From a virus (lineage: Duplodnaviria; Caudoviricetes): DNA of 62,963 nucleotides. Below are positions 2,927 to 58,065 of the stretch, in pieces. The notes under the pieces were generated by a model. It made no database searches. It was not told the DNA's origin and was given only the letters and a program-made list of their open reading frames with translations. Position 1 is the first letter of the stretch. Each line of letters begins with the position of its first letter. A program made the position numbers and the translations under genes. The DNA is taken from positions 1 through 62,963 of the IMG/VR virus record IMGVR_UViG_3300042199_000105. One strand, 5' to 3'.

Positions 2927-5896
2927 TCATATTGGAATTTCTGGGTCTATTGGTGGAACTGGAGGTAGAGGTCTTATAGTAATAGTAGCCGAAAATTCCT
3001 TAGGCTGAGTAGTTGTTGTAGCTGTTAAAGTTACTTTCTGACTAGCTCTATTAATAGTAGGTATAACTTTTACACCATTTACAAGACCCTCTCTTAACTT
3101 TTTTCTAATCTCTTTAAAGTTCTCTATTCTGGATACCGTATTATATTCATTTAGTTTCATTCTACCATATACTTCATGCTCAGTTAAAGTCTTTCCTGCA
3201 CCATCCAAATTCAAATAATAGTTAGAATCTATTTCCTCAATTATCTCTTTTAAAACTCTTAATCCAGTCTTCTTTCTTGCAGGGGTTATTTCTTTTGAAG
3301 ATATAATATTATTATTTCTACGGTATCCAGAATTGAATACTTTATCAGAAATATTTAACTTCATAATTCTAGTTTGTGGATCAGTTTCTCCATAAACATT
3401 TACACCTTGCATACCATCAGTGCTCATAGTTACGAACTTATTAAGGTTAGGTACTGTAAACTCTGGTGATATGGATGATCTAAATCTTGCGGATCTTATA
3501 ACCGAACCAGAAGTCTCTAAAACTTTAATTTGAGATTTACCATTAAATAAGTTATATTCAGGTCTATTAGTTGGATATATTAAAATATACCAAGGTATTT
3601 GTCTCGTAAGTAAAGGAACAGTTTTATTTTCTTTTAAAGAATCAAAAGTGATGTCTACTTGAGTTAGATAAGCAGAAGATGTTTGTTCTATATAATCAAG
3701 CATCAAATCCTCATCATCTAGAATGAATACTCTGTGGTTTACTTTGTACTTAATATAATCATTTATTTCTTCTAAACCACTTGTAGTTTTACTATCCATC
3801 AAATCATATCTTACTTTAGTGTTCTTTAGTAAGAAGGATCCTGTATCTGCTGGAGTAGTTTCTAGAGAGCTTAATACAACTTTTAGTAAATAGAAGTTTT
3901 CTCTGGTTGCTGATAGTGAGTAATTGTATTCTATACCAGAAGCTAAAGGGGCACTTACTTCAAGAGTTCTATAGGTATCTCCTCCAAGAAGATTTATTGC
4001 TTTCTGTCTAACATCTTCAGAAATTATGAATGCATGATCTTTCTCTGATTGAGTGTAGAATCTATTCATAACTCCGTTAACGTCTATATTAAAGTATTCT
4101 CCATCTTCAAGAGCGTATGACGAGTTTCCTATAAAGGTATCATCATCCTTAATATAATACTTTTCCAAAACACCATCTACTTCAATAAAAAAGTTTCTAT
4201 CTATATCTGAAGATAATGTTTTCCAGTTAGGAAGAATAACTGACATTTTTCCCTCAGATTCTTTTGGATCTAAAGGAAACATATTCTGCTCTATAAATGA
4301 AAGAGCAGCTACTTCATTTACTCTATCATCTAAACTGTTCTTAAATGTTACTGTGTTTCTTCTTTCACTATCTCTAGCTAAATCCTCAAGCATACCTACG
4401 GTTATATTACCAAACGTACCATCAAGTATTCTAGTTCCTAATAAATTAAATATTTGTGATCTAGTTAAAGGAGTTCCATCATAATTTCTTATCTTATTTA
4501 GAATATCAATAACTTCTGGTTTCAAGCTGTTATATAAAGAAGCTTCCGTAACTCCAGCAGCAGCTTTAGTACTCCAACTACTTTCATTTTGTCTTGTTAA
4601 TATATAAGATATATTATTATCAATTAGTGATCCTAGTAATTCAGTATATCCTGTTTTATTTTCAACTAATTGAGATTCGCTAGGATACAGATCTAAGAAT
4701 GCATTAATATCCTGTGCTCCCGCTGGACGCTGTTTAATAATTGCGTTTGCTATAGTTGGATTAGTAAGATCAATTTCTCCAGCAGATACAAAGTTAGTTA
4801 CATTTTGAACAACGTCTGGATTTGATTGTCTAACTACACCTAATCCAGATGAAGGTTTAGATTTATTTAAATAGGTTGATGTATCTTTAATTGATACTTT
4901 TGAATTGTTAGAAGTGCTTGTAGTAACCAATCCTTTTCCCGAAGATGTTCTAGATGAAGTAGTGTTTGTTTTTATAGAGGTTTGTTTACTAGTCGATACA
5001 TTCTGTATCCCATTTCCAGATCCAGATTGTAATGCTGCTAAGTTTGAGCCAAATGGAACAAAAATTCTAGCTGAATAATAATCAAATGGCTCTTGTCCTA
5101 CAGAATTACAAGCATGAGTTAGAGTTCCTAGTGTACCTATTATTTCAGCATTACTGAAATTATTATCTGTAATAAAAGTTTGAATTGCATTATTGTAAAT
5201 TGTTTGATTCTGAGCTTGCCAATTTGGTTGATTAGTTACATCACTACAAACCTTACCAAAACCTACAATGTATAATCTTCCTGGCACACCAAGATAGGTA
5301 TAAGATTGAATATAGTCTAGATCAGGATCTCTTACTAAGGTAAATCCATAAACAGTTGGTGGAGGTGGGGGCGTATTAGCAACAAACGCAGCTACTCTGT
5401 ATAAATATGTCTGAGAATCATTTAATACATTACAAGGACTACCTACAGTACCTGTAGTAGAAATACCTCCAGCAGTTACATTTTGTATTAATGTCCAGTT
5501 ACTAGTTCCTAAACTTTGAGTTATTTTAGAATTAATATTGGATTTACTAGTATTAATAGTTTGTGTTAATAAAGTATTTGCTATTATTTGACAAACTTGA
5601 GTAAAAGTAAAAAAATATAAATTTCCTTGTTGACTGTTGTATGTAAAAGTTATAGGATTTGATTTTATAGGAACAGATGTAATTGGAACTATTGTTATTT
5701 GTGTGGTCTGATTTATAGTAGTTCCTGGAGGAATTTTTGTTGGGGGACTGTCTATACTTGGAGGAGGAGGTGGTGGTGGAGGTGGTGGTGGAGGATCTAC
5801 GACATCGACGGTACTTCCCCAATTAAAATCAGGGAAGTTTACAGGACCTATTCCAGGTAAATAGGTTCCGCATTCAAATGTCTTTACTAATGGCAA
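2927..5896 (-). CDS. Large virion structural protein (unknown), Pro-rich ends
   Basis: 989-aa ORF abutting the upstream gene in the tail operon. Confidence 0.7.
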   Translation of the reverse strand: MPLVKTFECGTYLPGIGPVNFPDFNWGSTVDVVDPPPPPPPPPPPPSIDSPPTKIPPGTTINQTTQITIVPITSVPIKSNPITFTYNSQQGNLYFFTFTQVCQIIANTLLTQTINTSKSNINSKITQSLGTSNWTLIQNVTAGGISTTGTVGSPCNVLNDSQTYLYRVAAFVANTPPPPPTVYGFTLVRDPDLDYIQSYTYLGVPGRLYIVGFGKVCSDVTNQPNWQAQNQTIYNNAIQTFITDNNFSNAEIIGTLGTLTHACNSVGQEPFDYYSARIFVPFGSNLAALQSGSGNGIQNVSTSKQTSIKTNTTSSRTSSGKGLVTTSTSNNSKVSIKDTSTYLNKSKPSSGLGVVRQSNPDVVQNVTNFVSAGEIDLTNPTIANAIIKQRPAGAQDINAFLDLYPSESQLVENKTGYTELLGSLIDNNISYILTRQNESSWSTKAAAGVTEASLYNSLKPEVIDILNKIRNYDGTPLTRSQIFNLLGTRILDGTFGNITVGMLEDLARDSERRNTVTFKNSLDDRVNEVAALSFIEQNMFPLDPKESEGKMSVILPNWKTLSSDIDRNFFIEVDGVLEKYYIKDDDTFIGNSSYALEDGEYFNIDVNGVMNRFYTQSEKDHAFIISEDVRQKAINLLGGDTYRTLEVSAPLASGIEYNYSLSATRENFYLLKVVLSSLETTPADTGSFLLKNTKVRYDLMDSKTTSGLEEINDYIKYKVNHRVFILDDEDLMLDYIEQTSSAYLTQVDITFDSLKENKTVPLLTRQIPWYILIYPTNRPEYNLFNGKSQIKVLETSGSVIRSARFRSSISPEFTVPNLNKFVTMSTDGMQGVNVYGETDPQTRIMKLNISDKVFNSGYRRNNNIISSKEITPARKKTGLRVLKEIIEEIDSNYYLNLDGAGKTLTEHEVYGRMKLNEYNTVSRIENFKEIRKKLREGLVNGVKVIPTINRASQKVTLTATTTTQPKEFSATITIRPLPPVPPIDPEIPI

Positions 5897-47210: not shown

Positions 47211-47244
47211 TTGCTTTCGCTTGACCCTATGCTATAATGACCCC
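47211..47244 (+). promoter_or_regulatory. Sigma70-type promoter, leaderless
   Basis: TTGCTT-16-TATAAT with extended TG; ATG 6 nt downstream at 47245. Confidence 0.8.
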
Positions 47245-47421
47245 ATGAGCAACACGCACTACGCCGACTACACCTACTCCCCCGTGGAACGCTTCGAGAT
47301 CGCGGAGGGCGATAGCATCCGATGCCAAGGGTGCTACGATACGGGTATCACGGATGAGGCGCACTATTGCACCTGTGAGAATGGCAGGCTCGAAGCCAAG
47401 CGTGCAGAGGAGATGGCATGA
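47245..47421 (+). CDS. Small Cys-containing early protein
   Basis: MSNTHY...CQGC...CTC; leaderless start. Confidence 0.75.
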   Translation: MSNTHYADYTYSPVERFEIAEGDSIRCQGCYDTGITDEAHYCTCENGRLEAKRAEEMA

Positions 47422-47633
47422 GCGAGATCGAGTTTCGCAAGGGCGACATCCTATTGATTCGTGGAAGCACTTCCCCTAATAAGGGATTGCCCCCTATTGA
47501 TAAAACCCTCATAGCAGACGAGGATGGGTTTAGTGGCGGGTGGGATGTTTATGATGGGCACGATCCCGCTACGGGCGAGGAAGTTAGCTTCTACGGATGG
47601 AATGTCCGAGAGCGAGGCGTGCATCTGCCATAA
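47418..47633 (+). CDS. Hypothetical early protein
   Basis: GAGGAG RBS; stop codon TAA lies inside repeat 1. Confidence 0.75.
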   Translation: MSEIEFRKGDILLIRGSTSPNKGLPPIDKTLIADEDGFSGGWDVYDGHDPATGEEVSFYGWNVRERGVHLP

Positions 47634-47748
47634 TGGCAGGGCTGGCGGCTCGGTCGCCATAAGTCTAGTGCCCACAATAACTTAGAGCAACCTGAAAACT
47701 TTCCTAGTTTCCCCTTGCAATACTCCCAGAGTATGCTATAATGAGCGC
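47625..47748 (+). repeat. Promoter-cassette module 1 (divergent copy)
   Basis: CTGCCATAATGGCAG; TAAGT-N15-ACTTA; TTGCAA-16-TATAAT; ATG at 47749. Confidence 0.88.
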
Positions 47749-47988
47749 ATGAAGAACATCATCATCAACATCGCGGGTGCGGTTATCATTCTCGGTTTTG
47801 TCGCGTCAGCTTGGTGGGCTGGTTACGCTGCGGGATCCTCTGACGCGGAGATTGATCGCGCGGAAGTGCGCCACCACACTCTTGAAGGTCGCATCGTCAA
47901 GGTTATCATGCGCGACGGTACGACGATCTGGATCGACGCGAACGAACCGCGTGACCACTCGATCCCCTTCATGCGCCAGAGCGACTGA
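47749..47988 (+). CDS. Small membrane-anchored protein
   Basis: N-terminal hydrophobic helix; leaderless ATG. Confidence 0.75.
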   Translation: MKNIIINIAGAVIILGFVASAWWAGYAAGSSDAEIDRAEVRHHTLEGRIVKVIMRDGTTIWIDANEPRDHSIPFMRQSD

Positions 47989-48027
47989 GCTGTGGATGAA
48001 GCGACCCTGGCTTGAAAGGGCTTTGAT

Positions 48028-48148
48028 CTGCCATAATGGCAGCGCAGCCGCCCGCGCGTGCGTAACCCTAGTGCCAGCAAACACTTAGGACGAAAAGATT
48101 TTGCCAGAAAGCCCTTGCATTCTAGCCTAGATGTGGTATAATGACCCC
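48028..48148 (+). repeat. Promoter-cassette module 2
   Basis: CTGCCATAATGGCAGCGCAGCCGCCCGCGCG...TTGCAT...TGGTATAAT; ATG at 48149. Confidence 0.95.
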
Positions 48149-48370
48149 ATGAGCAACAAGACACGCTACACGGTTTTCATCGGAAACTACCGCACGGAAC
48201 AGACGGTCAAGACCTTCCCGCAGGAACAGTATGAGCGCGCCAAGGCTTACGCCAGCAGGATCGCGGAAGGCTATTCTGCCTGCTTGTACGATGAAACGCA
48301 GACCGCTTGCGATCATTGGTGGAGCGAGGATTCGGGGGTTTATGTTGAAGTCCGCTCGGAGGCGTGCTAG
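48149..48370 (+). CDS. Hypothetical early protein
   Basis: MSNKTRY...; leaderless ATG after module 2. Confidence 0.78.
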   Translation: MSNKTRYTVFIGNYRTEQTVKTFPQEQYERAKAYASRIAEGYSACLYDETQTACDHWWSEDSGVYVEVRSEAC

Positions 48371-48451
48371 AATGAGCCGCATGAAGCAGTTCAAGGATCG
48401 TGCCACCTTCTGTTTCTTCCTCTTCCTCTTCAGCCTTACTTTCTTCATCTG

Positions 48452-48628
48452 ATGAAACTCATTTGCCCTTTTTGCGACGGGGATGATCTAGCGCAGGAAG
48501 TTACTTTCCTGATTGATCCTAACTCTCTCAAGAATGTTTACGAAATCTACCCCGCTGAACTGACGTTTCAGGATTTTTTCTGGTGCAATAGTTGCGACGA
48601 AGAAATCAACCCTAAGGAGATCGAATGA
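48452..48628 (+). CDS. Small Zn-finger protein (58 aa, absent from ORF track)
   Basis: MKLICPFCDG...FWCNSCDEEINPKEIE*, overlaps the next ATG. Confidence 0.72.
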   Translation: MKLICPFCDGDDLAQEVTFLIDPNSLKNVYEIYPAELTFQDFFWCNSCDEEINPKEIE

Positions 48629-48825
48629 AGATTCACAAGTCCGTTACGATTGAACGTATTCTCGACGCGGTTGAGAATGATGAGATGCTCGGAATCTGCG
48701 CTAGTTGCGGCGAGGATTATGAGTCCAATGTTGAACCCGATGCCCGCAGGATTGAATGCGGCGAATGCGGCGAGTGTGCCGTGTACGGTGCGGAGGAACT
48801 TCTCATTATGACGGGGGCTTTCTAA
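48625..48825 (+). CDS. Small Zn-ribbon protein
   Basis: CASC...VEPDA...CGEC; AAGGAG RBS. Confidence 0.8.
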   Translation: MKIHKSVTIERILDAVENDEMLGICASCGEDYESNVEPDARRIECGECGECAVYGAEELLIMTGAF

Positions 48826-48827
48826 GC

Positions 48828-48948
48828 CTGCCATAATGGCAGCGCAGCCGCCCGCGCGGCCCTAAGTGCAGTAGTGGCAAAGACTTAGGACGAAAAGATT
48901 TTCCCCTTTTCCTATTGCTTTCCCTTGCGGTTATAGTATAATGAGCGC
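48828..48948 (+). repeat. Promoter-cassette module 3
   Basis: Dyad; CCTAAGT-N15-ACTTAGG; TTGCTT-16-TATAAT; ATG at 48949. Confidence 0.95.
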
Positions 48949-49278
48949 ATGAACACGGAAGCCCAAAAGATCTACGACATCATCTCGAACTTCATCAACA
49001 ATCAGGAAGTGCCCCTGAGCAGCACGGATAGCATTCCCGAGAACGAGAAGGCTGTGATCCTCACGATGGAAGATCACGGCACGGGGTGGAAGTGGAAGGT
49101 GTACGAAGGGCAAGTCACGAAGTACCCCGACGGCGAGACCACTTGCACGATGTTCGGTCGTGTGGACGGTTTCGAGTCCGAGCTTGGCTACTTCGATTTG
49201 CAAGAAATCATTGAAGCCACGATTCAGCCCTCGGGGTTCTCCTCTCTGTTCTTCAATGGTCGCACTATGGGAGCCTGA
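48949..49278 (+). CDS. DUF2958-like protein
   Basis: W.W...E...FGRVDGFESELGYFDL motif. Confidence 0.65.
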   Translation: MNTEAQKIYDIISNFINNQEVPLSSTDSIPENEKAVILTMEDHGTGWKWKVYEGQVTKYPDGETTCTMFGRVDGFESELGYFDLQEIIEATIQPSGFSSLFFNGRTMGA

Positions 49279-49282
49279 AATA

Positions 49283-49447
49283 ATGTCCAAGAAGAAGATG
49301 CCCACCTTTAGATTGTTTCGTGACGGTGAGTTGATTATGACGGGCACAGAGTTTCAACTCATGCGCTATGTTCATTCCAAACACTCTTTCTCGTTCGATC
49401 ACGCTCTCAAGTACGAGGGCTATAGTTGGGAGCAAGTCCTGCCATAA
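49283..49447 (+). CDS. Hypothetical early protein
   Basis: MSKKKMPTF...QVLP*; stop codon lies inside repeat 4. Confidence 0.7.
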   Translation: MSKKKMPTFRLFRDGELIMTGTEFQLMRYVHSKHSFSFDHALKYEGYSWEQVLP

Positions 49448-49558
49448 TGGCAGCGCAGCCGCCCGCGCGGCCCTAAGTGCAGTAGTGGCAAGCACTTACG
49501 GCAAAAGATTTTCCCCTTTTCCCCTTGCTTTCCCTTGCGGTTAGGGTACAATGAGCGC
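49439..49558 (+). repeat. Promoter-cassette module 4
   Basis: Dyad; TAAGTGC...GCACTTA; TTGCTT-16-TACAAT; ATG at 49559. Confidence 0.95.
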
Positions 49559-49768
49559 ATGAAGAAAACGAATGACTACGAAATGACCTTCGAGCAGTTT
49601 TCGGAAGCCCTCTCTAAGCGTTGCATCCCGCAGGATCGCCACGAAGAATACTTCGAGGATGGCTATAGCGTTAGCGACGCTTGGGATGATTGGGAGTGGC
49701 AAAAGCAAGTGGATGAATACGCTCAAGCCCTCGCGGATCGTAACTCCGCAATCCTCGCACAAGCCTGA
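49559..49768 (+). CDS. Acidic hypothetical early protein
   Basis: MKKTNDYE...; leaderless ATG. Confidence 0.78.
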   Translation: MKKTNDYEMTFEQFSEALSKRCIPQDRHEEYFEDGYSVSDAWDDWEWQKQVDEYAQALADRNSAILAQA

Positions 49769-49779
49769 AAGGTTAGCAC

Positions 49780-49995
49780 ATGATTATCAACCGAGTATCC
49801 CCGTTCACGGGCAAGGTCAACACGATGAATCTTCCCATCACGGAAGAGCAGATCGCACGTTGGAAGCGTGGTGCTTACGCGCAAGACGTTTGGCCCGATC
49901 TCACCCCTTCGCAGCGTGAGTTCCTTATCTCGGGATCTACCGAAGAGGATTGGGAAACCTACATTACGGGAGCGTTTGAGGAGGAGGATGATTGA
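49780..49995 (+). CDS. Phage hypothetical protein
   Basis: 71 aa; SPFTGKVNTM...QDVWPDLTPSQREFLISG; AAGG RBS. Confidence 0.78.
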   Translation: MIINRVSPFTGKVNTMNLPITEEQIARWKRGAYAQDVWPDLTPSQREFLISGSTEEDWETYITGAFEEEDD

Positions 49996-50009
49996 GCTTT
50001 GACTTTTCC

Positions 50010-50131
50010 CTGTCATAATGGCAGCGCAGCCGCCCGCGCGGCACTAAGTCTAGTAGCCACAAGCACTTACGCTCAAAAGATTTTCCCCAAGAGGGTTTGA
50101 CTTTTCCCTAGAGTATAGTATAATATACCCC
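50010..50131 (+). repeat. Promoter-cassette module 5
   Basis: CTGTCATAATGGCAG variant; TTGACT-16-TATAAT; ATG at 50132. Confidence 0.93.
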
Positions 50132-50353
50132 ATGAACATCAAAACGCACTACGTCGTGTACCTCGAAACGCCCCACAAGACCCCCAGTTACGGTCGGCAG
50201 GTGATTGATACGACCAATCCCCGCGATGCCATGATCGTGTTCCAGACTCTTGCCAAGTATTACGATTGCAAGAAGGAGTACGGACCTTCTGGCCGACAGA
50301 ATGAGAACGGTGATACGATGATTTTCATCAACGCTGTCGCTCACCTTAGCTGA
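50132..50353 (+). CDS. Hypothetical early protein
   Basis: 73 aa, leaderless ATG. Confidence 0.78.
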   Translation: MNIKTHYVVYLETPHKTPSYGRQVIDTTNPRDAMIVFQTLAKYYDCKKEYGPSGRQNENGDTMIFINAVAHLS

Positions 50354-50364
50354 GGAGAAATCAC

Positions 50365-50538
50365 TTGAACGAGTTTGATGAGGACATGATTCAGGATGCG
50401 ATCAACGAAGCCCTTCGGACCCTTCTCAAGAACGGTCACGTTTCTTCGGGACTCAATGAAAGCGGCGAAATCGTTTTCTGGTGTTCGGACGAGGACTGGG
50501 CGAAATACAATCAGGAGAAGCACATTTACGAACTCTAA
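50365..50538 (+). CDS. Acidic 57-aa protein (absent from ORF track)
   Basis: GAGGAG RBS then TTG; MNEFDEDMIQDAINEALR...HIYEL*. Confidence 0.65.
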   Translation: MNEFDEDMIQDAINEALRTLLKNGHVSSGLNESGEIVFWCSDEDWAKYNQEKHIYEL

Positions 50539-50631
50539 GGAGTTCGGAGAAGGAATGTTCGACGGACAAGAAAGTATGTTGATAAAGGTTTTCGCCTATT
50601 ATCTCATTTTCTTTCTTGTCTGTTGGGTTTT

Positions 50632-50713
50632 GGGGGTGTAACGGTTTTTCGACTAGCTAATGCCCGAATGGGAACTAGCTCGGACAGGGGTTCAACTCCC
50701 CTCACCTCCACCA
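50632..50713 (+). ncRNA. Minimal tmRNA-like RNA (tRNA-like domain only, 82 nt)
   Basis: 5' GGGGGTG-TAACGGTTTTTCGAC; 3' GGAC-AGGGG-TTCAACT-CCCCT-CACCTCC-ACCA; G3-U70 wobble, no D stem, ~30-nt hairpin where the mRNA domain should be. Confidence 0.85.
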
Positions 50714-50719
50714 TACAAC

Positions 50720-50840
50720 CTGCCATAATGGCAGCGCAGCCGCCCGCGCGAGCGCAAGTGCAGTAGTGGCAAAGACTTAGGACGAAAAGATTTTGCCAGA
50801 AAGCCCTTGCATTGTGCCTAGGTTATGGTATAATGAGCGC
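50720..50840 (+). repeat. Promoter-cassette module 6
   Basis: Dyad; TTGCAT...TGGTATAAT; ATG at 50841. Confidence 0.95.
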
Positions 50841-51221
50841 ATGAACAACGACAACAACAACAAGCGTTCGCATCGTACTCTCGAACAGATCAAAGCTGAG
50901 ACGGAGGCCCGACTGGCTTCGCTTCGTGAGCGTCTGGCTCGCAAGGATGCCAAGAATGACCCGACCATGCAGTCGCTCATGGAACAACGCGAGTTCTTGC
51001 AGAAGCAGATCCGCGAGTGCAAGAAGATCCTCGGGGAAGGTCCGCAGTCTGCCAAGGTTCGCGCCCAAAAGCATCAGGCTTGGATCGACCTCATTCGGCA
51101 AGAGGCGACGACTGCTGAGATGGACCTCGAAGTGTTGCAGTCCAATCTTGAGCGATTGGACGAAAACATCCAGAGCAAGATTGCGGCGATGACTATCAAG
51201 GATTCGCAAGCGTCCTGCTAG
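50841..51221 (+). CDS. Coiled-coil early protein
   Basis: MNNDNNNKR...; heptad-rich; leaderless ATG. Confidence 0.8.
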   Translation: MNNDNNNKRSHRTLEQIKAETEARLASLRERLARKDAKNDPTMQSLMEQREFLQKQIRECKKILGEGPQSAKVRAQKHQAWIDLIRQEATTAEMDLEVLQSNLERLDENIQSKIAAMTIKDSQASC

Positions 51222-51291
51222 TGGCGATGGCTCTGGCTATGGCGATGGCGGTAGGAGGGTTCTGGCAGAGTGACCAGACCCTCCTGCCCTC

Positions 51292-51412
51292 CTGCCATAA
51301 TGGCAGCGCAGCCGCCCGCGCGCGCGTAACCCTAGTGCCAGCAAACACTTAGGACGAAAAGATTTTCCCCTTTTCCTATTGCTTTCCCTTGCGGTTATGG
51401 TATAATAAGCGC
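51292..51412 (+). repeat. Promoter-cassette module 7
   Basis: Dyad; TTGCTT-16-TATAAT; ATG at 51413. Confidence 0.95.
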
Positions 51413-51709
51413 ATGAACAACAACAACAACAACAAGATGGTTCCCGTTATCATCACCACGTCACACAGGGGCGTTTTCTTCGGTTACACGAAGGACTACA
51501 GCGGCGACACGATCACGCTCAAGGATGCACGAATGTGCATTTACTGGAGTGCCGACGTCAAGGGCTGCTTTGGTCTCGCAGCGACTGGTCCGTCGAGCGG
51601 ATGCCGTATCGGACCCAAGGCGGATATCGTCGTCCGCAACGTGACCGCAGTCGCGCTGTGCAGCGATGCTGCTGTTGCTGCTTGGGAGAAGGCTCCTTGG
51701 AGCAACTGA
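51413..51709 (+). CDS. Sm/LSm-fold-like protein (DUF6948-like), copy in array
   Basis: VIITTSHRGVFFG...ITLKDAR resembles the Sm1 motif; identical in protein to 57373..57681 from NKMVP onward. Confidence 0.7.
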   Translation: MNNNNNNKMVPVIITTSHRGVFFGYTKDYSGDTITLKDARMCIYWSADVKGCFGLAATGPSSGCRIGPKADIVVRNVTAVALCSDAAVAAWEKAPWSN

Positions 51710-51720
51710 TCCGAGGCGAG

Positions 51721-51963
51721 ATGAGCCGTGAAGGCTATGGCTTTGGCTATGGCTATGGAGATGGCTATGGCTCTGGATATGGCTATGGCGATGGAGATGG
51801 CTATGGCTATGGCTATGGAGATGCCTATGGCTCTGGATATGGCTATGGCGACGGATTTAGCTATGGCTATGGCGGTGGAGATGGCTATGGCGATGGCTAT
51901 GGCCGTGGCTTTGGCGATGGCGATGGCGATGCAGAGCAGGATATAGTATGCAAGAACAACTGA
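51721..51963 (+). CDS. Gly-Tyr/Asp repeat peptide A1
   Basis: MSREGYGFGYG...AEQDIVCKNN; GAGG RBS. Confidence 0.7.
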   Translation: MSREGYGFGYGYGDGYGSGYGYGDGDGYGYGYGDAYGSGYGYGDGFSYGYGGGDGYGDGYGRGFGDGDGDAEQDIVCKNN

Positions 51964-52247
51964 TCCGAGGCGAGATCAGCCGTGAAGGCGCTGACTATGG
52001 CTATGGCGATGGCTATGGCTATGGCTCTGGATATGGCTATGGCGATGGCAATGGCTGTGGCGAAGGCTATGGCGATGGCGACGGATTTAGCTATGGCTAT
52101 GGCGATGGAGATGGCTCTGGCTATGGCCGTGGCTTTGGCTATGGCCGTGGCTCTGGCTATGGCTCTGGCTATGGCTATGGCTATGGCTATGGCGATGGAG
52201 ATGGCTCTGGCTATGGCGAAGATGGTAGAGCGATTATGGCAGAGTGA
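51948..52247 (+). CDS. Gly-Tyr/Asp repeat peptide A2
   Basis: MQEQLIRGEISREG...; AGGA RBS inside the previous ORF. Confidence 0.7.
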   Translation: MQEQLIRGEISREGADYGYGDGYGYGSGYGYGDGNGCGEGYGDGDGFSYGYGDGDGSGYGRGFGYGRGSGYGSGYGYGYGYGDGDGSGYGEDGRAIMAE

Positions 52248-52257
52248 CCAGTCCCTC

Positions 52258-52380
52258 CTGCCATAATGGCAGCGCAGCCGCCCGCGCGTGCGTAACCCTA
52301 GTGCCAGCAAACACTTAGGACGAAAAGATTTTTCCAGAAAGCCCTTGCAGAATGGCCCTCAGCATGGTATAATACCCCGC
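52258..52380 (+). repeat. Promoter-cassette module 8
   Basis: Dyad; TTGCAG-17-TATAAT; ATG at 52381. Confidence 0.95.
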
Positions 52381-52581
52381 ATGAACGAAGATGAATACCT
52401 CGATGCGGCGTGGGAAGATGCGATCTCTGGGTACGACTACGAACAGGAGGCGTACTATGATCGTGACCCCTACGCCGACCGAGCCGACTATGATCTCTGG
52501 GAACAGAATCAGGTCGATCAGGATCGGGAAGGCTACGAGGACTACTACGAAGCCGACGAAGATTCTGAAGATTTCTCTTGA
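52381..52581 (+). CDS. Extremely acidic, Tyr-rich small protein (possible DNA mimic)
   Basis: MNEDEYLDAAWEDAISGYDYEQEAYYD...; 66 aa dominated by D/E/Y. Confidence 0.75.
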   Translation: MNEDEYLDAAWEDAISGYDYEQEAYYDRDPYADRADYDLWEQNQVDQDREGYEDYYEADEDSEDFS

Positions 52582-52612
52582 TTTCCCCTCCAACCTAAGG
52601 TACAATACGCAC
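52578..52612 (+). promoter_or_regulatory. Stand-alone leaderless sigma70-type promoter
   Basis: TTGATT-17-TACAAT-6-ATG; upstream dyads of the module are absent. Confidence 0.75.
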
Positions 52613-52858
52613 ATGAACAACAACAACATCGAACAGCTTTCCCTCAATCCGACTCAAGCCAAGGTTCACGGGCTCTCCGTGCAGGTTGGCGAACTCTTTG
52701 CCGATCTGTACCGCTCGTCTCCGACTGGGCTGGAAACCGAGTACGCTCTCAATGCGTACAAGAATCTGCGCCGCATTCTTCCGCGTGAGCGAGCTTTTGG
52801 GCGTCACATCGGTCGCCGTGCGGCTTGGCACGCTACTCAGGGGAACCGCACTCGGTGA
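52613..52858 (+). CDS. Hypothetical early protein
   Basis: MNNNNIEQ...; leaderless ATG. Confidence 0.75.
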   Translation: MNNNNIEQLSLNPTQAKVHGLSVQVGELFADLYRSSPTGLETEYALNAYKNLRRILPRERAFGRHIGRRAAWHATQGNRTR

Positions 52859-52859
52859 C

Positions 52860-53043
52860 CTTGGACTCGTCCGTGCGAGTATAAATAGGCTAATAGGCAC
52901 GGCGCGCCACCTCTCGCATAAGAGAGGCTGGGATAGCAGCCCCGCAGGGATAGCGGGAACCTCGAAACCTCTAGACGTAGAGGGACCGACAGAGGGTGCA
53001 TATTAGGTAGGTGCAGTCGGGGCACCTACCCCCTAACACTCTG
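52860..53043 (+). ncRNA. Candidate structured noncoding RNA/DNA element
   Basis: Six closely packed hairpins, no convincing ORF, TATAAATA at 52880-52887. Confidence 0.5.
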
Positions 53044-53160
53044 CCATAATGGCAGCGCAGCCGCCCGCGCGGCCCTAAGTCTAGTAATGCCAAGCACTTA
53101 CGGCAAAAGATTTTCCGATTTTCCCCTTGAAACTAGCTCAGGGTGTGGTATAATGCCCGC
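53041..53160 (+). repeat. Promoter-cassette module 9
   Basis: Dyad; TTGAAA-16-TATAAT; ATG at 53161. Confidence 0.95.
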
Positions 53161-54350: not shown

Positions 54351-54364
54351 TGTAGGTGTGCAAG

Positions 54365-54428
54365 TGAGGATGGCAGGAGTCGAACCCACGAATGCTCCGC
54401 TACGATTTTACGATTGAGCTTCATCCCC
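54365..54428 (-). tRNA. tRNA-like element lacking the anticodon arm (pseudo-tRNA)
   Basis: GGGGATG/CATCCTC acceptor stem, GCTC/GAGC D stem, GTGGG-TTCGACT-CCTGC T arm; only ATTC between D and T arms; no encoded CCA. Confidence 0.6.
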
Positions 54429-55338: not shown

Positions 55339-55564
55339 TATTAGTATCCTCTTGGGATTGTTCTTCTACTTGAGTAAGTATAAACTGAAGACTATCTATT
55401 ACGTCAATAGTCTTTATTGCTCTCTCTGCTAACTGGATATTGAATCCTCCATTATACCAATCTTCCTTGGTAGTCTTGGTAGAGGTTTCTGCCAGTAGTG
55501 CTCTTGCGAACTCCTTGGCTTGCTGCAAATAATCTTTACCTTCTTTGTACGATCTCTTGTGCAT
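55322..55564 (-). CDS. Hypothetical protein
   Basis: 80 aa ending ELPF (SSB-tail-like). Confidence 0.6.
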   Translation of the reverse strand: MHKRSYKEGKDYLQQAKEFARALLAETSTKTTKEDWYNGGFNIQLAERAIKTIDVIDSLQFILTQVEEQSQEDTNNELPF

Positions 55565-55684
55565 AATTATTAGTTTGACTTTCTGGTTATTAGTACCCTT
55601 CCATTATAGCCTTCTTTGCGGCTGCCATGACGTTATTCCACTTTCTAACAGCGTCTGTGTAGTAAGGAGGCTAGTTGCCTCAAA

Positions 55685-55888
55685 TTAGTTGCTCTTGCAT
55701 ACTATATCCTCTTTTCCATAGCCATAGCCATAGCAATAGCCATAGCCATAGCCAGAGCCAGAGCCATCGCCATAGCCATAGCCATAGCCGTCGCCATAGC
55801 CATAGCCATAGCCATAGCCATCGCCATAGCCATAGCCATATCCAGAGCCATAGCGGCTCATTTCACCTCGGATCAGTTGCTCTTGCAT
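55685..55888 (-). CDS. Gly-Tyr repeat peptide B7
   Basis: MQEQLIRGEMSRYG...KEDIVCKSN. Confidence 0.7.
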   Translation of the reverse strand: MQEQLIRGEMSRYGSGYGYGYGDGYGYGYGYGDGYGYGYGDGSGSGYGYGYCYGYGYGKEDIVCKSN

Positions 55889-56184
55889 ACTATATCCTCT
55901 TCTCCATAGCCATAGCAATAGCCGTAGCCAGAGCCATCTCCATCGCCATCTCCATCGCCATCTCCATCGCCATAGCCATCTCCGTCGCCATAGCCATATC
56001 CAGAGCCATAGCCATCTCCATAGCCACAGCCAAAGCCATAGCCATCTCCGTCGCCATAGCCATATCCAGAGCCATCGCCATCTCCATAGCCACAGCCAAA
56101 GCCAAAGCCATAGCCATCGCCATAGCCATAGCCACAGCCACAGCCGTCGCGGATCATTTCGCCACGAATTAGTTGCTCTTGCAT
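55873..56184 (-). CDS. Gly-Tyr repeat peptide B6
   Basis: MQEQLIRGEMIRDG...EEDIVCKSN. Confidence 0.7.
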   Translation of the reverse strand: MQEQLIRGEMIRDGCGCGYGYGDGYGFGFGCGYGDGDGSGYGYGDGDGYGFGCGYGDGYGSGYGYGDGDGYGDGDGDGDGDGDGSGYGYCYGYGEEDIVCKSN

Positions 56185-56261
56185 ACTATATCCTCTTCTC
56201 CATCGCCATAGCCATCGCCATAGCCCTCACCATTTTTAGTCATTTTACCTCGAATGAGCAT
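56169..56261 (-). CDS. Short Gly-Tyr peptide B5
   Basis: MLIRGKMTKNGEGYGDGYGDGEEDIVCKSN; degenerate junction. Confidence 0.55.
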   Translation of the reverse strand: MLIRGKMTKNGEGYGDGYGDGEEDIVCKSN

Positions 56262-56554
56262 ATATCCTCTTTTCCATAGCCAGAGCCAAAGCCACGGCCA
56301 TAGCCAGAGCCACGGCCATAGCCAGAGCCATAGCCAGAGCCACAGCCGTAGCCGTGACCATAGCCATAGCCATCGCCATAGCCAGAGCCAGAGCCGTAGC
56401 CTTCGCCAAAACCAAAGCCATAGCAATAGCCATAGCCATCGCCAGAGCCATAGCCATCTCCATCGCCATAGCCATAGCCATAGCCGTCGCCATAGCCATA
56501 GCCATAGCCATAGCCGTCGCGGATCATTTCGCCACGAATTAGTTGCTCTTGCAT
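56240..56554 (-). CDS. Gly-Tyr repeat peptide B4
   Basis: MQEQLIRGEMIRDG...KEDICSFEVK. Confidence 0.7.
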   Translation of the reverse strand: MQEQLIRGEMIRDGYGYGYGYGDGYGYGYGDGDGYGSGDGYGYCYGFGFGEGYGSGSGYGDGYGYGHGYGCGSGYGSGYGRGSGYGRGFGSGYGKEDICSFEVK

Positions 56555-56838
56555 ACTATATCCTTCTCTGCATCGACATCGCCATCGCCAAAGCCACGGC
56601 CATCGCCATAGCCACGGCCATAGCCAGAGCCAGAGCCATAGCCACAGCCGTAGCCGTGGTCATAGACAGAGCCATAGCCATCGCCATAGCCATAGCCATA
56701 GCCATAGCAATAGCCATAGCCAGAGCCAGAGCCATAGCCATCTCCATCGCCATAGCCATAGCCAAAGCCAGAGCCATCGCCATAGCCATATCCGTCGCCT
56801 TTGCGACTCATTTTGCCACGGATCAGTTGCTCTTGCAT
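56539..56838 (-). CDS. Gly-Tyr repeat peptide B3
   Basis: MQEQLIRGKMSRKG...EKDIVCKSN. Confidence 0.7.
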   Translation of the reverse strand: MQEQLIRGKMSRKGDGYGYGDGSGFGYGYGDGDGYGSGSGYGYCYGYGYGYGDGYGSVYDHGYGCGYGSGSGYGRGYGDGRGFGDGDVDAEKDIVCKSN

Positions 56839-57092
56839 ACTATATCCTGCTCTGCATCGCCATCGCCATCGCCAAAGCCACGGCCATAGCCATCGCCATA
56901 GCCATCTCCGTCGCCATAGCCACAGCCATAGCCATAGCCATAGCCAGAGCCATAGCCATAGCCATAGCCCAAGCCATCGCCATAGCCATAGCCATAGCCA
57001 GAGCTATAGCCACGGCCATAACCATAGCCATAGCAATAGCCATAGCCATCGCCTTTACGGCTCATTTCGCCACGAATTAGTTGCTCTTGCAT
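56823..57092 (-). CDS. Gly-Tyr repeat peptide B2
   Basis: MQEQLIRGEMSRKG...EQDIVCKSN. Confidence 0.7.
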   Translation of the reverse strand: MQEQLIRGEMSRKGDGYGYCYGYGYGRGYSSGYGYGYGDGLGYGYGYGSGYGYGYGCGYGDGDGYGDGYGRGFGDGDGDAEQDIVCKSN

Positions 57093-57361
57093 ACTATATC
57101 CTTTTCTCCATCGCCATAGCCATCGCCATAGCCATCGCCATCGCTATCGCCATCGCCATCGCTATCGCCAAAGCCATAGCCGTCGCCAAAGCCATAGCCA
57201 GAGCCAGAGCCATCTCGATCGCCATAGCCATAGCCATCGCCAAAGCCATCTCCATCGCCATAGCCATCTCCATCGCCATAGCCATCTCCATCGCCATAGC
57301 CATAGCCGTCGCCAAAACCATAGCCAGAGCCAGAGCCAAAGCCATAGCCTTCACGGCTCAT
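57077..57361 (-). CDS. Gly-Tyr repeat peptide B1
   Basis: MSREGYGFGSG...EKDIVCKSN; directly after the Sm-like gene. Confidence 0.7.
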   Translation of the reverse strand: MSREGYGFGSGSGYGFGDGYGYGDGDGYGDGDGYGDGDGFGDGYGYGDRDGSGSGYGFGDGYGFGDSDGDGDSDGDGYGDGYGDGEKDIVCKSN

Positions 57362-57372
57362 CTCGCCACGGA

Positions 57373-57681
57373 TCAGTTGCTCCAAGGAGCCTTTTCCCAA
57401 GCAGCAACAGCAGCATCGCTGCACAGCGCGACTGCGGTCACGTTGCGGACGACGATATCCGCCTTAGGCCCGATACGGCATCCGCTCGACGGACCAGTCG
57501 CTGCGAGACCAAAGCAGCCCTTGACGTCGGCACTCCAGTAAATGCACATTCGTGCATCCTTGAGCGTGATCGTGTCGCCGCTGTAGTCCTTCGTGTAACC
57601 GAAGAAAACGCCCCTGTGTGACGTGGTAATGATAACGGGAACCATCTTGTTAACTGCCTTCTTAACGATTTTCTTAGCCAT
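57373..57681 (-). CDS. Sm/LSm-fold-like protein (DUF6948-like), probable donor copy
   Basis: AAGGA RBS; MAKKIVKKAVNKMVPVIITTSHRGVFFG... Confidence 0.75.
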   Translation of the reverse strand: MAKKIVKKAVNKMVPVIITTSHRGVFFGYTKDYSGDTITLKDARMCIYWSADVKGCFGLAATGPSSGCRIGPKADIVVRNVTAVALCSDAAVAAWEKAPWSN

Positions 57682-57705
57682 GTTTAAATCCTTTTTTGTT
57701 AGTTG

Positions 57706-58065
57706 TTAATTGTAGAATTCCAAGTTGTACCCATGACGATTAAACAGCTCTTTGAGATCTTTCTCTCGATCTTCGTCGGAGCACATAGCATCGTCATTGA
57801 TCACCATAGCTTCTAGAGCTAATGTGTTGTTTACGAGATTACCGTAATCAGGAAACGAAAAACGGATCTCAGTTAATATCGAGGGCTTCTTGTAGAACTT
57901 CTTAGGTTCTCTCAAACTTTCGAGATCATCCCAAGAACACTTGGTGGTTTGGTGAATAACGTGCCCCAAGCAGCACCCAGCCTGTCGATCAGCGCACCAG
58001 AGGCTATTCTCAACGGTAGACATGCCGCGCAACCACTTCTTACGATCAATGCGGAAAGTTTTCAT
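57706..58065 (-). CDS. Hypothetical protein
   Basis: 119 aa; IDRKKWLRG...CCLG...NDD. Confidence 0.72.
   Translation of the reverse strand: MKTFRIDRKKWLRGMSTVENSLWCADRQAGCCLGHVIHQTTKCSWDDLESLREPKKFYKKPSILTEIRFSFPDYGNLVNNTLALEAMVINDDAMCSDEDREKDLKELFNRHGYNLEFYN

Follow-up and report, generated by a model that had tools for sequence, protein, structure and literature searches.

A predicted DUF6948 barrel gene and overlapping Gly-Tyr repeat genes form a widespread two-gene phage module that is tandemly amplified in one virus record

The window analysed here is a whole stretch of 62,963 bp, a linear IMG/VR virus record (IMGVR_UViG_3300042199_000105; Duplodnaviria, Caudoviricetes) with a completeness of 56% by CheckV. 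On its minus strand, a gene for a predicted barrel protein of the Pfam family DUF6948 (PF22253) is followed by seven overlapping small open reading frames (ORFs; P1, P2, P3, P4, P4b, P5 and P6) that span 55685–57385 and encode strings of glycine dipeptides (Gly-X), and a plus-strand module at 51413–52247 holds a second barrel gene with two such ORFs (A1 and A2). An earlier, sequence-only reading of the window had described a 102-amino-acid (aa) Sm-fold-like protein gene followed by seven coupled Gly-Tyr peptide genes. The ORF list and the sequence bear out the 102-aa gene and the seven small ORFs, whose stop codons begin at 57077, 56823, 56539, 56240, 56169, 55873 and 55685. Here we report that the window array belongs to a two-gene module widespread in phages, of which it is a domain-less form amplified in tandem, and that its arrangement of seven plus two units is an extreme case, the most amplified among the loci seen. 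The features of the two window modules are listed below; SD stands for Shine–Dalgarno and AF2 for AlphaFold2.

57373–57681, minus strand: DUF6948 barrel gene copy 1, 102 aa, SD-led start, C-terminus ..AWEKAPWSN*; assigned by Pfam PF22253 match and AF2 model
57077–57385, minus strand: Gly-X peptide P1, 102 aa, TTG start over the barrel's final Trp codon, −1 frame
56823–57092, minus strand: Gly-X peptide P2, 89 aa, MQEQLIRGEM..DIVCKSN
56539–56838, minus strand: Gly-X peptide P3, 99 aa
56240–56554, minus strand: Gly-X peptide P4, 104 aa, variant tail ..GKEDICSFEVK
56169–56261, minus strand: mini peptide P4b, 30 aa, MLIRGKMTKNGEGYGDGYGDGEEDIVCKSN, preceded by a junction of the type found in the related contig L005
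55873–56184, minus strand: Gly-X peptide P5, 103 aa
55685–55888, minus strand: Gly-X peptide P6, 67 aa, last full unit
55680–55700, minus strand: terminal junction remnant MQEQLI*, from the ORF and junction reading
51413–51709, plus strand: DUF6948 barrel gene copy 2, 98 aa, MNNNNNNKMVPV.., ATG 6 nt past TGGTATAAT
51697–51963, plus strand: Gly-X peptide A1, 88 aa, TTG start over the final Trp codon of barrel copy 2
51948–52247, plus strand: Gly-X peptide A2, 99 aa, tail replaced by ..GEDGRAIMAE on entering a repeated intergenic element
51221–51262, plus strand: relic of a Gly-X unit 3′ end (GDGSGYGDGG..), ahead of the repeated intergenic element, read directly from the sequence

Each unit is laid out as an SD site, a leader (M)(Q)EQLIRGxM, a (Gly-X)n core and a tail EDIVCKSN. 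P1 has no ATG and its start codon is TTG; in A2 the leader reads MQEQLIRGEIS, with Ile (ATC) where the other units have an inner Met (ATG), exactly as had been noted before. Tandem Repeats Finder reported a 6-nt period over 55716–57349 (269 copies) and over 51733–52217. The Gly-X runs of the window comprise 538 residues (Gly 269, Tyr 119, Asp 71, Ser 31 and Phe 19), and the peptides carry net charges of −2 to −19. The DNA of the two barrel copies is nearly identical from the eighth codon on, AAGATGGTT (..KMV).

Successive units are joined by a junction that is read in two frames. One frame encodes the tail ..(E/K)(E/K/Q)DIVCKSN*, and the −1 frame supplies GAGGA, 6 nt and then ATG CAA GAG CAA CT., that is, the leader MQEQLIRG(E/K)M, with a 16-nt overlap between the two ORFs. 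This dual-coding junction, described in the sequence-only reading, was recovered with a 32-nt degenerate pattern that has seven exact matches in the window, six on the minus strand (55677, 55865, 56161, 56531, 56815 and 57069) and one on the plus strand (51940), compared with none in any of 100 shuffles; past the last junction the frame stops at once (MQEQLI*), as had also been described. The junction near 56250 had been taken for a degenerate copy. A copy is indeed present there, but it is not merely degenerate: it represents a second type (..KEDIC.. / MLIRGKM) that matches the junctions of L005 (..KEDVC* / MLIRGDM). The last bases of the barrel gene (TGGAGCAACTGATCCGTGGCGAGATGAGCCGT) find an echo in the junctions, which agrees with the earlier remark that they resemble the end of the upstream gene. 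At another locus (L070, ~3222–3590) a Gly-X ORF ends ..KEVKAWESAPWK, where the C-terminal codons of the barrel occur once more, now read in the Gly-X frame. Together, the two echoes show that units duplicate along with the barrel gene 3′ end. The ‘leader’ corresponds to a conserved N-flank (LRGxxPxW) of the wider Gly-Tyr family, and the ‘tail’ EDIV to its conserved C-flank.

Barrel copy 1 matched Pfam DUF6948 with an expectation value (E) of 1.1e-23 and 83.6 bits (cut-off 27), covering 83 of 85 profile positions, and both copies were recovered as DUF6948 in the window record. Over 41 diverse homologues the mean column identity is 61%, making the barrel unusually conserved for a phage protein. 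The AF2 model (predicted local distance difference test score, pLDDT, 89; predicted template modelling score, pTM, 0.81) has five strands and two helices, and in a Foldseek search against the PDB the top matches listed were all Sm/LSm proteins, including peptide-binding LSm domains. In a viral structure library the matches were further DUF6948 proteins, plus a few entries under the label ‘Sm-like’, and matches in the ESM Atlas were to DUF6948 clusters and unnamed clusters only. Solved PDB structures gave no sequence match to the barrel, and PHROGs, NCBIfam and PADLOC held nothing meaningful for it or for the accessory domains described below. On the predicted model, ‘Sm-like barrel’ is a fair description, and the protein is at most a putative member of the Sm/LSm family. 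The earlier description of the protein as Sm-fold-like thus stands as to the predicted barrel and its top matches, whereas the match itself is weak (values are given where the interpretation is weighed).

A scan of IMG/VR with a profile of the 41 aligned barrel homologues detected a relative in at least 329 stretches; the analysis retained the 80 best loci. Under a loose criterion, which asks for a Gly/Tyr-rich frame that begins within the 3′-terminal part of the barrel gene, 76 of the 80 viral DUF6948 loci were positive, and the four misses have only 8, 37, 104 and 253 nt of downstream DNA. Under a strict criterion (eight or more Gly-X dipeptides, with Tyr, Asp or Ser in at least 70% of the X positions), the survey of homologue neighbourhoods that the sequence-only reading had suggested found a same-strand run downstream of the barrel gene at 53 of 60 distinct viral loci and at 25 of 27 loci from bacterial genomes; regions upstream or on the opposite strand, taken as controls, gave none (viral 0/71, 0/60 and 0/71; genomes 0/31, 0/27 and 0/31). 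The converse test started from 80 viral loci picked solely by a 24-nt Gly-Tyr coding motif, 14 of which have too little upstream DNA, leaving 66 assessable. A DUF6948-superfamily gene lies directly upstream in 59 of the 66: a DUF6948 hidden Markov model (HMM) match was found just upstream at 35 loci, a distant branch of the family (RGW.FVG...WGTTKGLGELA) at 23 further loci, and at one locus (L203) the upstream gene is DUF6948 by Pfam (E 1.8e-19). Seven of the 66 loci are unexplained. In the distant branch, 20 of the 23 members were recognised by a post hoc motif and used to build the branch HMM, and three are independent matches; hhalign aligned DUF6948 with this branch at a probability of 87% (E 4e-6, 73 columns), and the branch keeps the gene layout, with an ATG over the last Trp codon (..SKWKLL* read as M-E-T-T-L-T-L-D-G-..). 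Over hundreds of loci the pairing holds whichever of the two genes is taken first, and by this genomic evidence the barrel and Gly-Tyr proteins are real partners. The proposal that an Sm-like protein is partnered with the peptides is thereby supported; that they belong to a widespread family had been overlooked in the sequence-only reading.

Prophage-like loci in many bacterial phyla also encode the barrel, one of them (L089) in the genome of an isolate; when 50,697 GenBank phage records were searched with the barrel by tblastn, there was no match. One metagenome-assembled genome (MAG) of Candidatus Marinacidobacterales contains at least eight near-identical barrel/Gly-Tyr modules (L108–L115) scattered over the genome, each retrieved with an 8-kb flank, an arrangement that looks like a multi-copy mobile element. 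At locus L045 (3297–3750) an extra ORF with an HNH-like Cys/His pattern lies between the barrel and Gly-Tyr genes and starts at the usual overlapping GTG.

The run encoded by gene 2 has the form (Gly-X)n, with X being Tyr, Ser or Asp, and is flanked by LRGxxPxW-like and EDIV/EYWL-like motifs. The remainder of the protein varies. Among 96 distinct downstream frames, 27 have a C-terminal domain of ~110 aa, 17 an N-terminal domain, four another C-terminal domain and two something else, while 19 are short and domain-less like those of the window and 18 are cut by the contig end; the remaining nine contain no run in that frame, explained for example by another start, by insertion of an HNH gene or by the small size of the contig. 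A globular domain is thus present in 50 of the 69 complete downstream proteins that have a run, as against the small stand-alone leader-core-follower layout of the window and the 19 short forms. As far as these gene structures tell, the partner of the barrel is the run itself and not any attached domain. No barrel–Gly-Tyr fusion protein was found in a search that is weak for long proteins. Two longer barrel forms were discarded, one as an over-called N-terminal extension and the other as probably chimaeric with the small subunit of a hydrogenase.

The common C-terminal domain is homologous to the DUF7666-like N-domain of other members (hhalign probability 94%, E 1e-7). The N-domain of locus L039 scored 26.7 bits against the DUF7666 HMM, just under the cut-off of 27; the domain is absent from the window. 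The AF2 model of the common C-terminal domain (pLDDT 92) matched nothing significantly in the PDB, the best long alignment being to rifampin ADP-ribosyltransferase (template modelling (TM) score 0.41, probability 0.30, E 0.84). A whole-library profile search yielded 302 representatives of the DUF7666-like domain, many with pentapeptide repeats in place of the Gly-Tyr run. Fusions to long pentapeptide repeats (A[DN]LxG) occur in P0143, P0148, P0159–P0170, P0182 and P0189 and at loci L125–L130; six viral loci of this kind have no barrel gene by either HMM, one of them with only ~300 nt of upstream sequence.

Flanking genes vary from locus to locus. Pfam families among 96 upstream and 65 downstream neighbours include HNH, HTH, RecT/ERF/Rad52, methylases and exonuclease, which places the module in early and recombination regions, and no third constant partner was found among them. 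In the window the Pfam-assigned neighbours of the module are GNAT, DUF4406 and a sigma-like protein. Matches of the Gly-Tyr peptides to Pfam TrAA12, CFAP143 and SGP were rejected as low-complexity matches; PHROGs, NCBIfam and PADLOC gave only weak low-complexity matches to the window peptides; and Rfam matches inside the array to miRNA and isrG families were far below gathering scores.

We then examined how gene 2 is started. In 77 loci the codon that overlaps the barrel's terminal Trp codon is GTG (45), ATG (21), CTG (7) or TTG (4), that is, ATG or GTG in 66. The third base of the last Pro codon is A or G in 60 cases and C or T in nine, compared with 170 versus 108 for the other Pro codons of the same genes (Fisher p = 2.8e-5). 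An SD-like core lies 4–16 nt upstream of the gene 2 start in 94 of 98 genes, and the overlap between the two genes is 10 or 13 nt in 95 of 98. Because this SD site is supplied by the conserved Trp-Glu codons of the barrel, the barrel gene and gene 2 are probably translationally coupled. A canonical slippery heptamer (X_XXY_YYZ) was found in the last 20 codons of 0 of 103 distinct barrel genes, and none is visible in the window junctions. The Gly-X ORFs are, on these start-site and overlap statistics, most likely real, separately initiated genes, which lends support to the earlier view of them as coupled, separately initiated cistrons. Promoter and terminator scans returned site counts no higher than in shuffled sequence.

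The runs are also constrained in composition. Over 88 loci they consist of Gly (50.5%), Tyr (19.8%), Ser (15.0%) and Asp (11.5%), and no other residue reaches 1%; His and Cys, whose codons lie one transition from TAC, occur nine times each, as against 613 Asp and 799 Ser. Loci differ in codons (GGC, GGG or GGT; TAC or TAT) yet keep the same residues. These codon differences, the dominance of Tyr, Ser and Asp and the rarity of His and Cys indicate selection on the protein, and not on an RNA or DNA motif. Within the run of any one locus almost a single codon is used per residue, which, as a codon pattern, is the signature of slippage and concerted evolution. Run length ranges from 102 to 118 aa among the eight module copies of the one MAG, and close relatives of the window barrel have one, two or 4 + 1 units; the array is therefore dynamic, in line with the expandable array first proposed.

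Sequences from the array recur in independent samples. Half or more of the sampled words of 55500–57800 occur in nine sequencing runs, drawn from seven or more studies of fresh water or lakes, and in three independent freshwater DNA runs both flanks and internal array pieces of 90–200 nt match exactly. No short-read contig from these three DNA runs or from one RNA-library run spans the array, ~55731–55807 and 56270–57039 being skipped or uncovered because of the repeats.

As to function, our best guess is a polymer that is acidic, rich in Tyr and self-associating, with the barrel as its partner. This explanation as a whole, of an amplified two-gene module whose barrel serves the polymer as a binder, holdase or nucleator, is one that we regard as slightly more probable than not. 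The domain-less unit of leader, run and tail was duplicated along with the last bases of gene 1, giving seven cistrons behind one barrel gene and two behind the second copy, every one of them with an SD site and ATG of its own; since the repeat unit of the run is six nucleotides long, slippage lengthens or shortens the run and leaves the reading frame intact. The Gly-Tyr/Asp/Ser proteins would be acidic, disordered, Tyr-rich polymers that self-associate, as GYGYGYG heptapeptides do in forming amyloid-type fibrils (PMC8163036). With the barrel as dedicated partner (binder, holdase or nucleator), the polymer would assemble early in infection into a higher-order structure, namely a scaffold of condensate-like or fibrillar kind, to which an attached globular domain, where present, would be tethered, and the array would supply more polymer, varied in length and charge. 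The fullest version, a two-component phage system in which the barrel acts as nucleator or chaperone, the Gly-Tyr/Asp/Ser polymers as a condensate or amyloid-like scaffold inside the infected cell, the interchangeable domains as cargo, and slippage and unit duplication as the means of tuning length, charge and dose, is tentative and, taken whole, doubtful.

Several observations weigh against the partner-and-polymer interpretation. The assembly or scaffold function is deduced from composition only, and one barrel gene per seven peptide genes fits a simple 1:1 complex poorly. The Sm/LSm fold match is weak (E 5e-3 to 3e-2, TM 0.35–0.70, none at E ≤ 1e-3); the barrel model has no N-terminal helix but begins with a strand (E14–20) and has its helices at 55–62 and 89–96; and a Pfam scan of the barrel gave no LSM or Hfq match at E ≤ 0.1. 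The sole support from an RNA library is one 186-nt contig, exact at 56090–56267, and possibly DNA carry-over. A complex prediction of the barrel with P2 scored 0.00 in two runs, for which no controls were folded, and counts neither way on binding. The main functional rival, which we regard as unlikely, is a decoy or mimic role: the acidic Gly-Tyr/Asp run would mimic nucleic acid or a substrate and soak up a host protein (a defence or a DNA/RNA-binding protein), with the barrel loading or targeting it and the array raising dose and variety. The pentapeptide-repeat fold is a known DNA mimic, and the DUF7666-like domain, the commonest companion of the run, is elsewhere fused to such repeats. The strong acidity of the peptides, with net charge down to −19, and the position of the module beside RecT/ERF/Rad52, HNH, HTH and methylase genes would suit this role as well. 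Yet no family of the PADLOC anti-phage defence models was matched, and the pentapeptide-repeat versions lack the barrel, which makes the repeat-type analogy loose.

Three further readings, each of them unlikely, concern what the array encodes. The sequence-only reading had left room for a leader-core-follower precursor, and a precursor array for ribosomally synthesized and post-translationally modified peptides (RiPPs) or bacteriocin-type products, in which the leader MQEQLIRGEM, a Gly-X core and the follower DIVCKSN are processed into secreted peptides, could account for the conserved termini around variable cores, the several precursor-like genes in tandem and the Cys and Ser within the cores. 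This option is weakened to the point of being quite improbable: the 96 upstream and 65 downstream neighbours include no recurrent modifying enzyme, protease or exporter family, an export signal is absent, the sole constant partner is a barrel of ~95 aa, and the frequency of globular domains among the complete run proteins makes the run an internal or terminal segment and not a peptide core. Repeated programmed −1 frameshifting would instead join the barrel and all Gly-X units into one long polyprotein. The open frame does shift by −1 at every junction, including the one after the barrel gene, and no naturally in-frame fused form that would make frameshifting needless was found; the absence of slippery sites, the frequent SD-like core, the strong bias of the overlapping codon to ATG or GTG and the GAGGA, 6 nt, ATG order at each window junction make this highly improbable. 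Least credible of all is that the array is a non-coding hexanucleotide satellite or a low-complexity assembly artefact. Its 6-nt period in 269 copies and the failure of any short-read contig to span it are what such an origin would leave; however, loci that differ in their wobble bases retain the same residues, substitutions show a non-neutral spectrum, the Gly-X frame alone persists from locus to locus, the junctions with their SD site and start codon are conserved, and internal pieces and both flanks recur exactly in the three independent freshwater runs.

The genome around the two modules has features of its own. The large terminase of the window is ~31–33% identical to those of T4-like Flavobacterium and Microcystis phages. 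Guanine-plus-cytosine (GC) content is mosaic, at ~33% in 1–46 kb (structural genes) and ~52–58% in 47.2–54 kb and 55.6–57.7 kb (the early island and the barrel/Gly-Tyr modules), and the window Gly-X runs use T-ending codons (TAT, GAT and TCT) where most relatives use C-ending ones; this combination would fit acquisition from a phage of higher GC content and incomplete amelioration since then. At 47233–53149 on the plus strand, nine small genes have T(A/G)TAAT (mostly TGGTATAAT or TGCTATAAT, an extended −10 box) 6–7 nt before the ATG and, from this spacing, look like leaderless early transcripts; several of their proteins start MNNNNN... A repeated intergenic element (..CTGCCATAATGGCAG CGCAGCCGCCCGCGCG.GCGTAACCCTAGTGCCAGCAAACAC..) lies 3′ of small early genes at 48032–48084, 51296–51348 and 52262–52314 on the plus strand, three copies that match a 53-nt pattern exactly with none expected; degenerate copies lie near 47650, 49480, 50700, 53000 and 54060, seen only as recurring translated motifs, and the element may be a terminator-promoter cassette or a small RNA. 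An 82-nt RNA at 50632–50713 on the plus strand matches only the tRNA-like ends of transfer-messenger RNA (tmRNA), with acceptor and T arms and an encoded CCA (61.7 bits, gathering score 47), and has 12 nt in place of the 306-nt middle; a second, weaker match to tmRNA ends lies at 54362–54428 on the minus strand (20 bits), and ARAGORN reported no tRNA or tmRNA in the window. A Pistol self-cleaving ribozyme match lies at 52865–52937 on the plus strand (42.0 bits, gathering score 34.5).

Among known systems, multi-precursor RiPP loci consist of tandem small genes with a conserved leader and variable cores, which the constant ends and variable middles of the window genes resemble, but such loci differ from the module in that no maturation genes recur near it and in that most of its relatives carry the run within larger, domain-bearing proteins. 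Eukaryotic Sm/LSm proteins bear low-complexity tails in cis, rich in RG/RGG or Q/N and implicated in granule assembly; they likewise combine a barrel with a low-complexity region, whereas DUF6948 matches them at the fold level only, and weakly. The Gly/Tyr-rich sulphur globule proteins (Pfam SGP) are alike in composition alone, one relative reaching E 0.042, below the cut-off, and unlike those secreted or envelope-forming proteins the phage Gly-Tyr proteins show neither homology nor a signal peptide and have an early-region context. FUS-type [G/S]Y[G/S] domains are prion-like low-complexity domains. The phage runs share the Gly/Ser-Tyr composition of these domains and of the GYGYGYG peptides, and a tendency of (GY)n to self-assemble is documented (PMC8163036); the runs differ from both in their strict two-residue period, ~11% Asp and high negative charge, in their phage origin and dedicated partner gene, and in their upkeep by hexanucleotide slippage. 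The closest architectural precedent is Hfq of Acinetobacter baumannii, which has an Sm core, a long disordered C-terminal domain of GGFGGQ repeats and an acidic C-tip, with function depending on repeat number (PMC11617691). Both systems combine a barrel (Sm in Hfq, predicted Sm-like in the window), glycine-aromatic repeats and an acidic tip (the window runs end E(E/K)DIV), but A. baumannii Hfq is one polypeptide, whereas in the window the repeats are a separate, coupled gene product and are dipeptides (G-Y/D/S), not GGFGGQ; DUF6948 has no sequence match to Hfq/LSM. A full-text literature search returned no mention of DUF6948 or DUF7666, and nothing relevant on phages with glycine-tyrosine or low-complexity proteins.

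We rate the barrel and Gly-Tyr module as a kind of system not yet described. Its strict two-way linkage through gene overlap, kept even in distant branches, points to a basic, unstudied function. If the polymer assembles, the module would offer a simple bacterial and phage model of tyrosine-driven low-complexity assembly with a genetic length dial, and may be a source of programmable Gly-Tyr materials.

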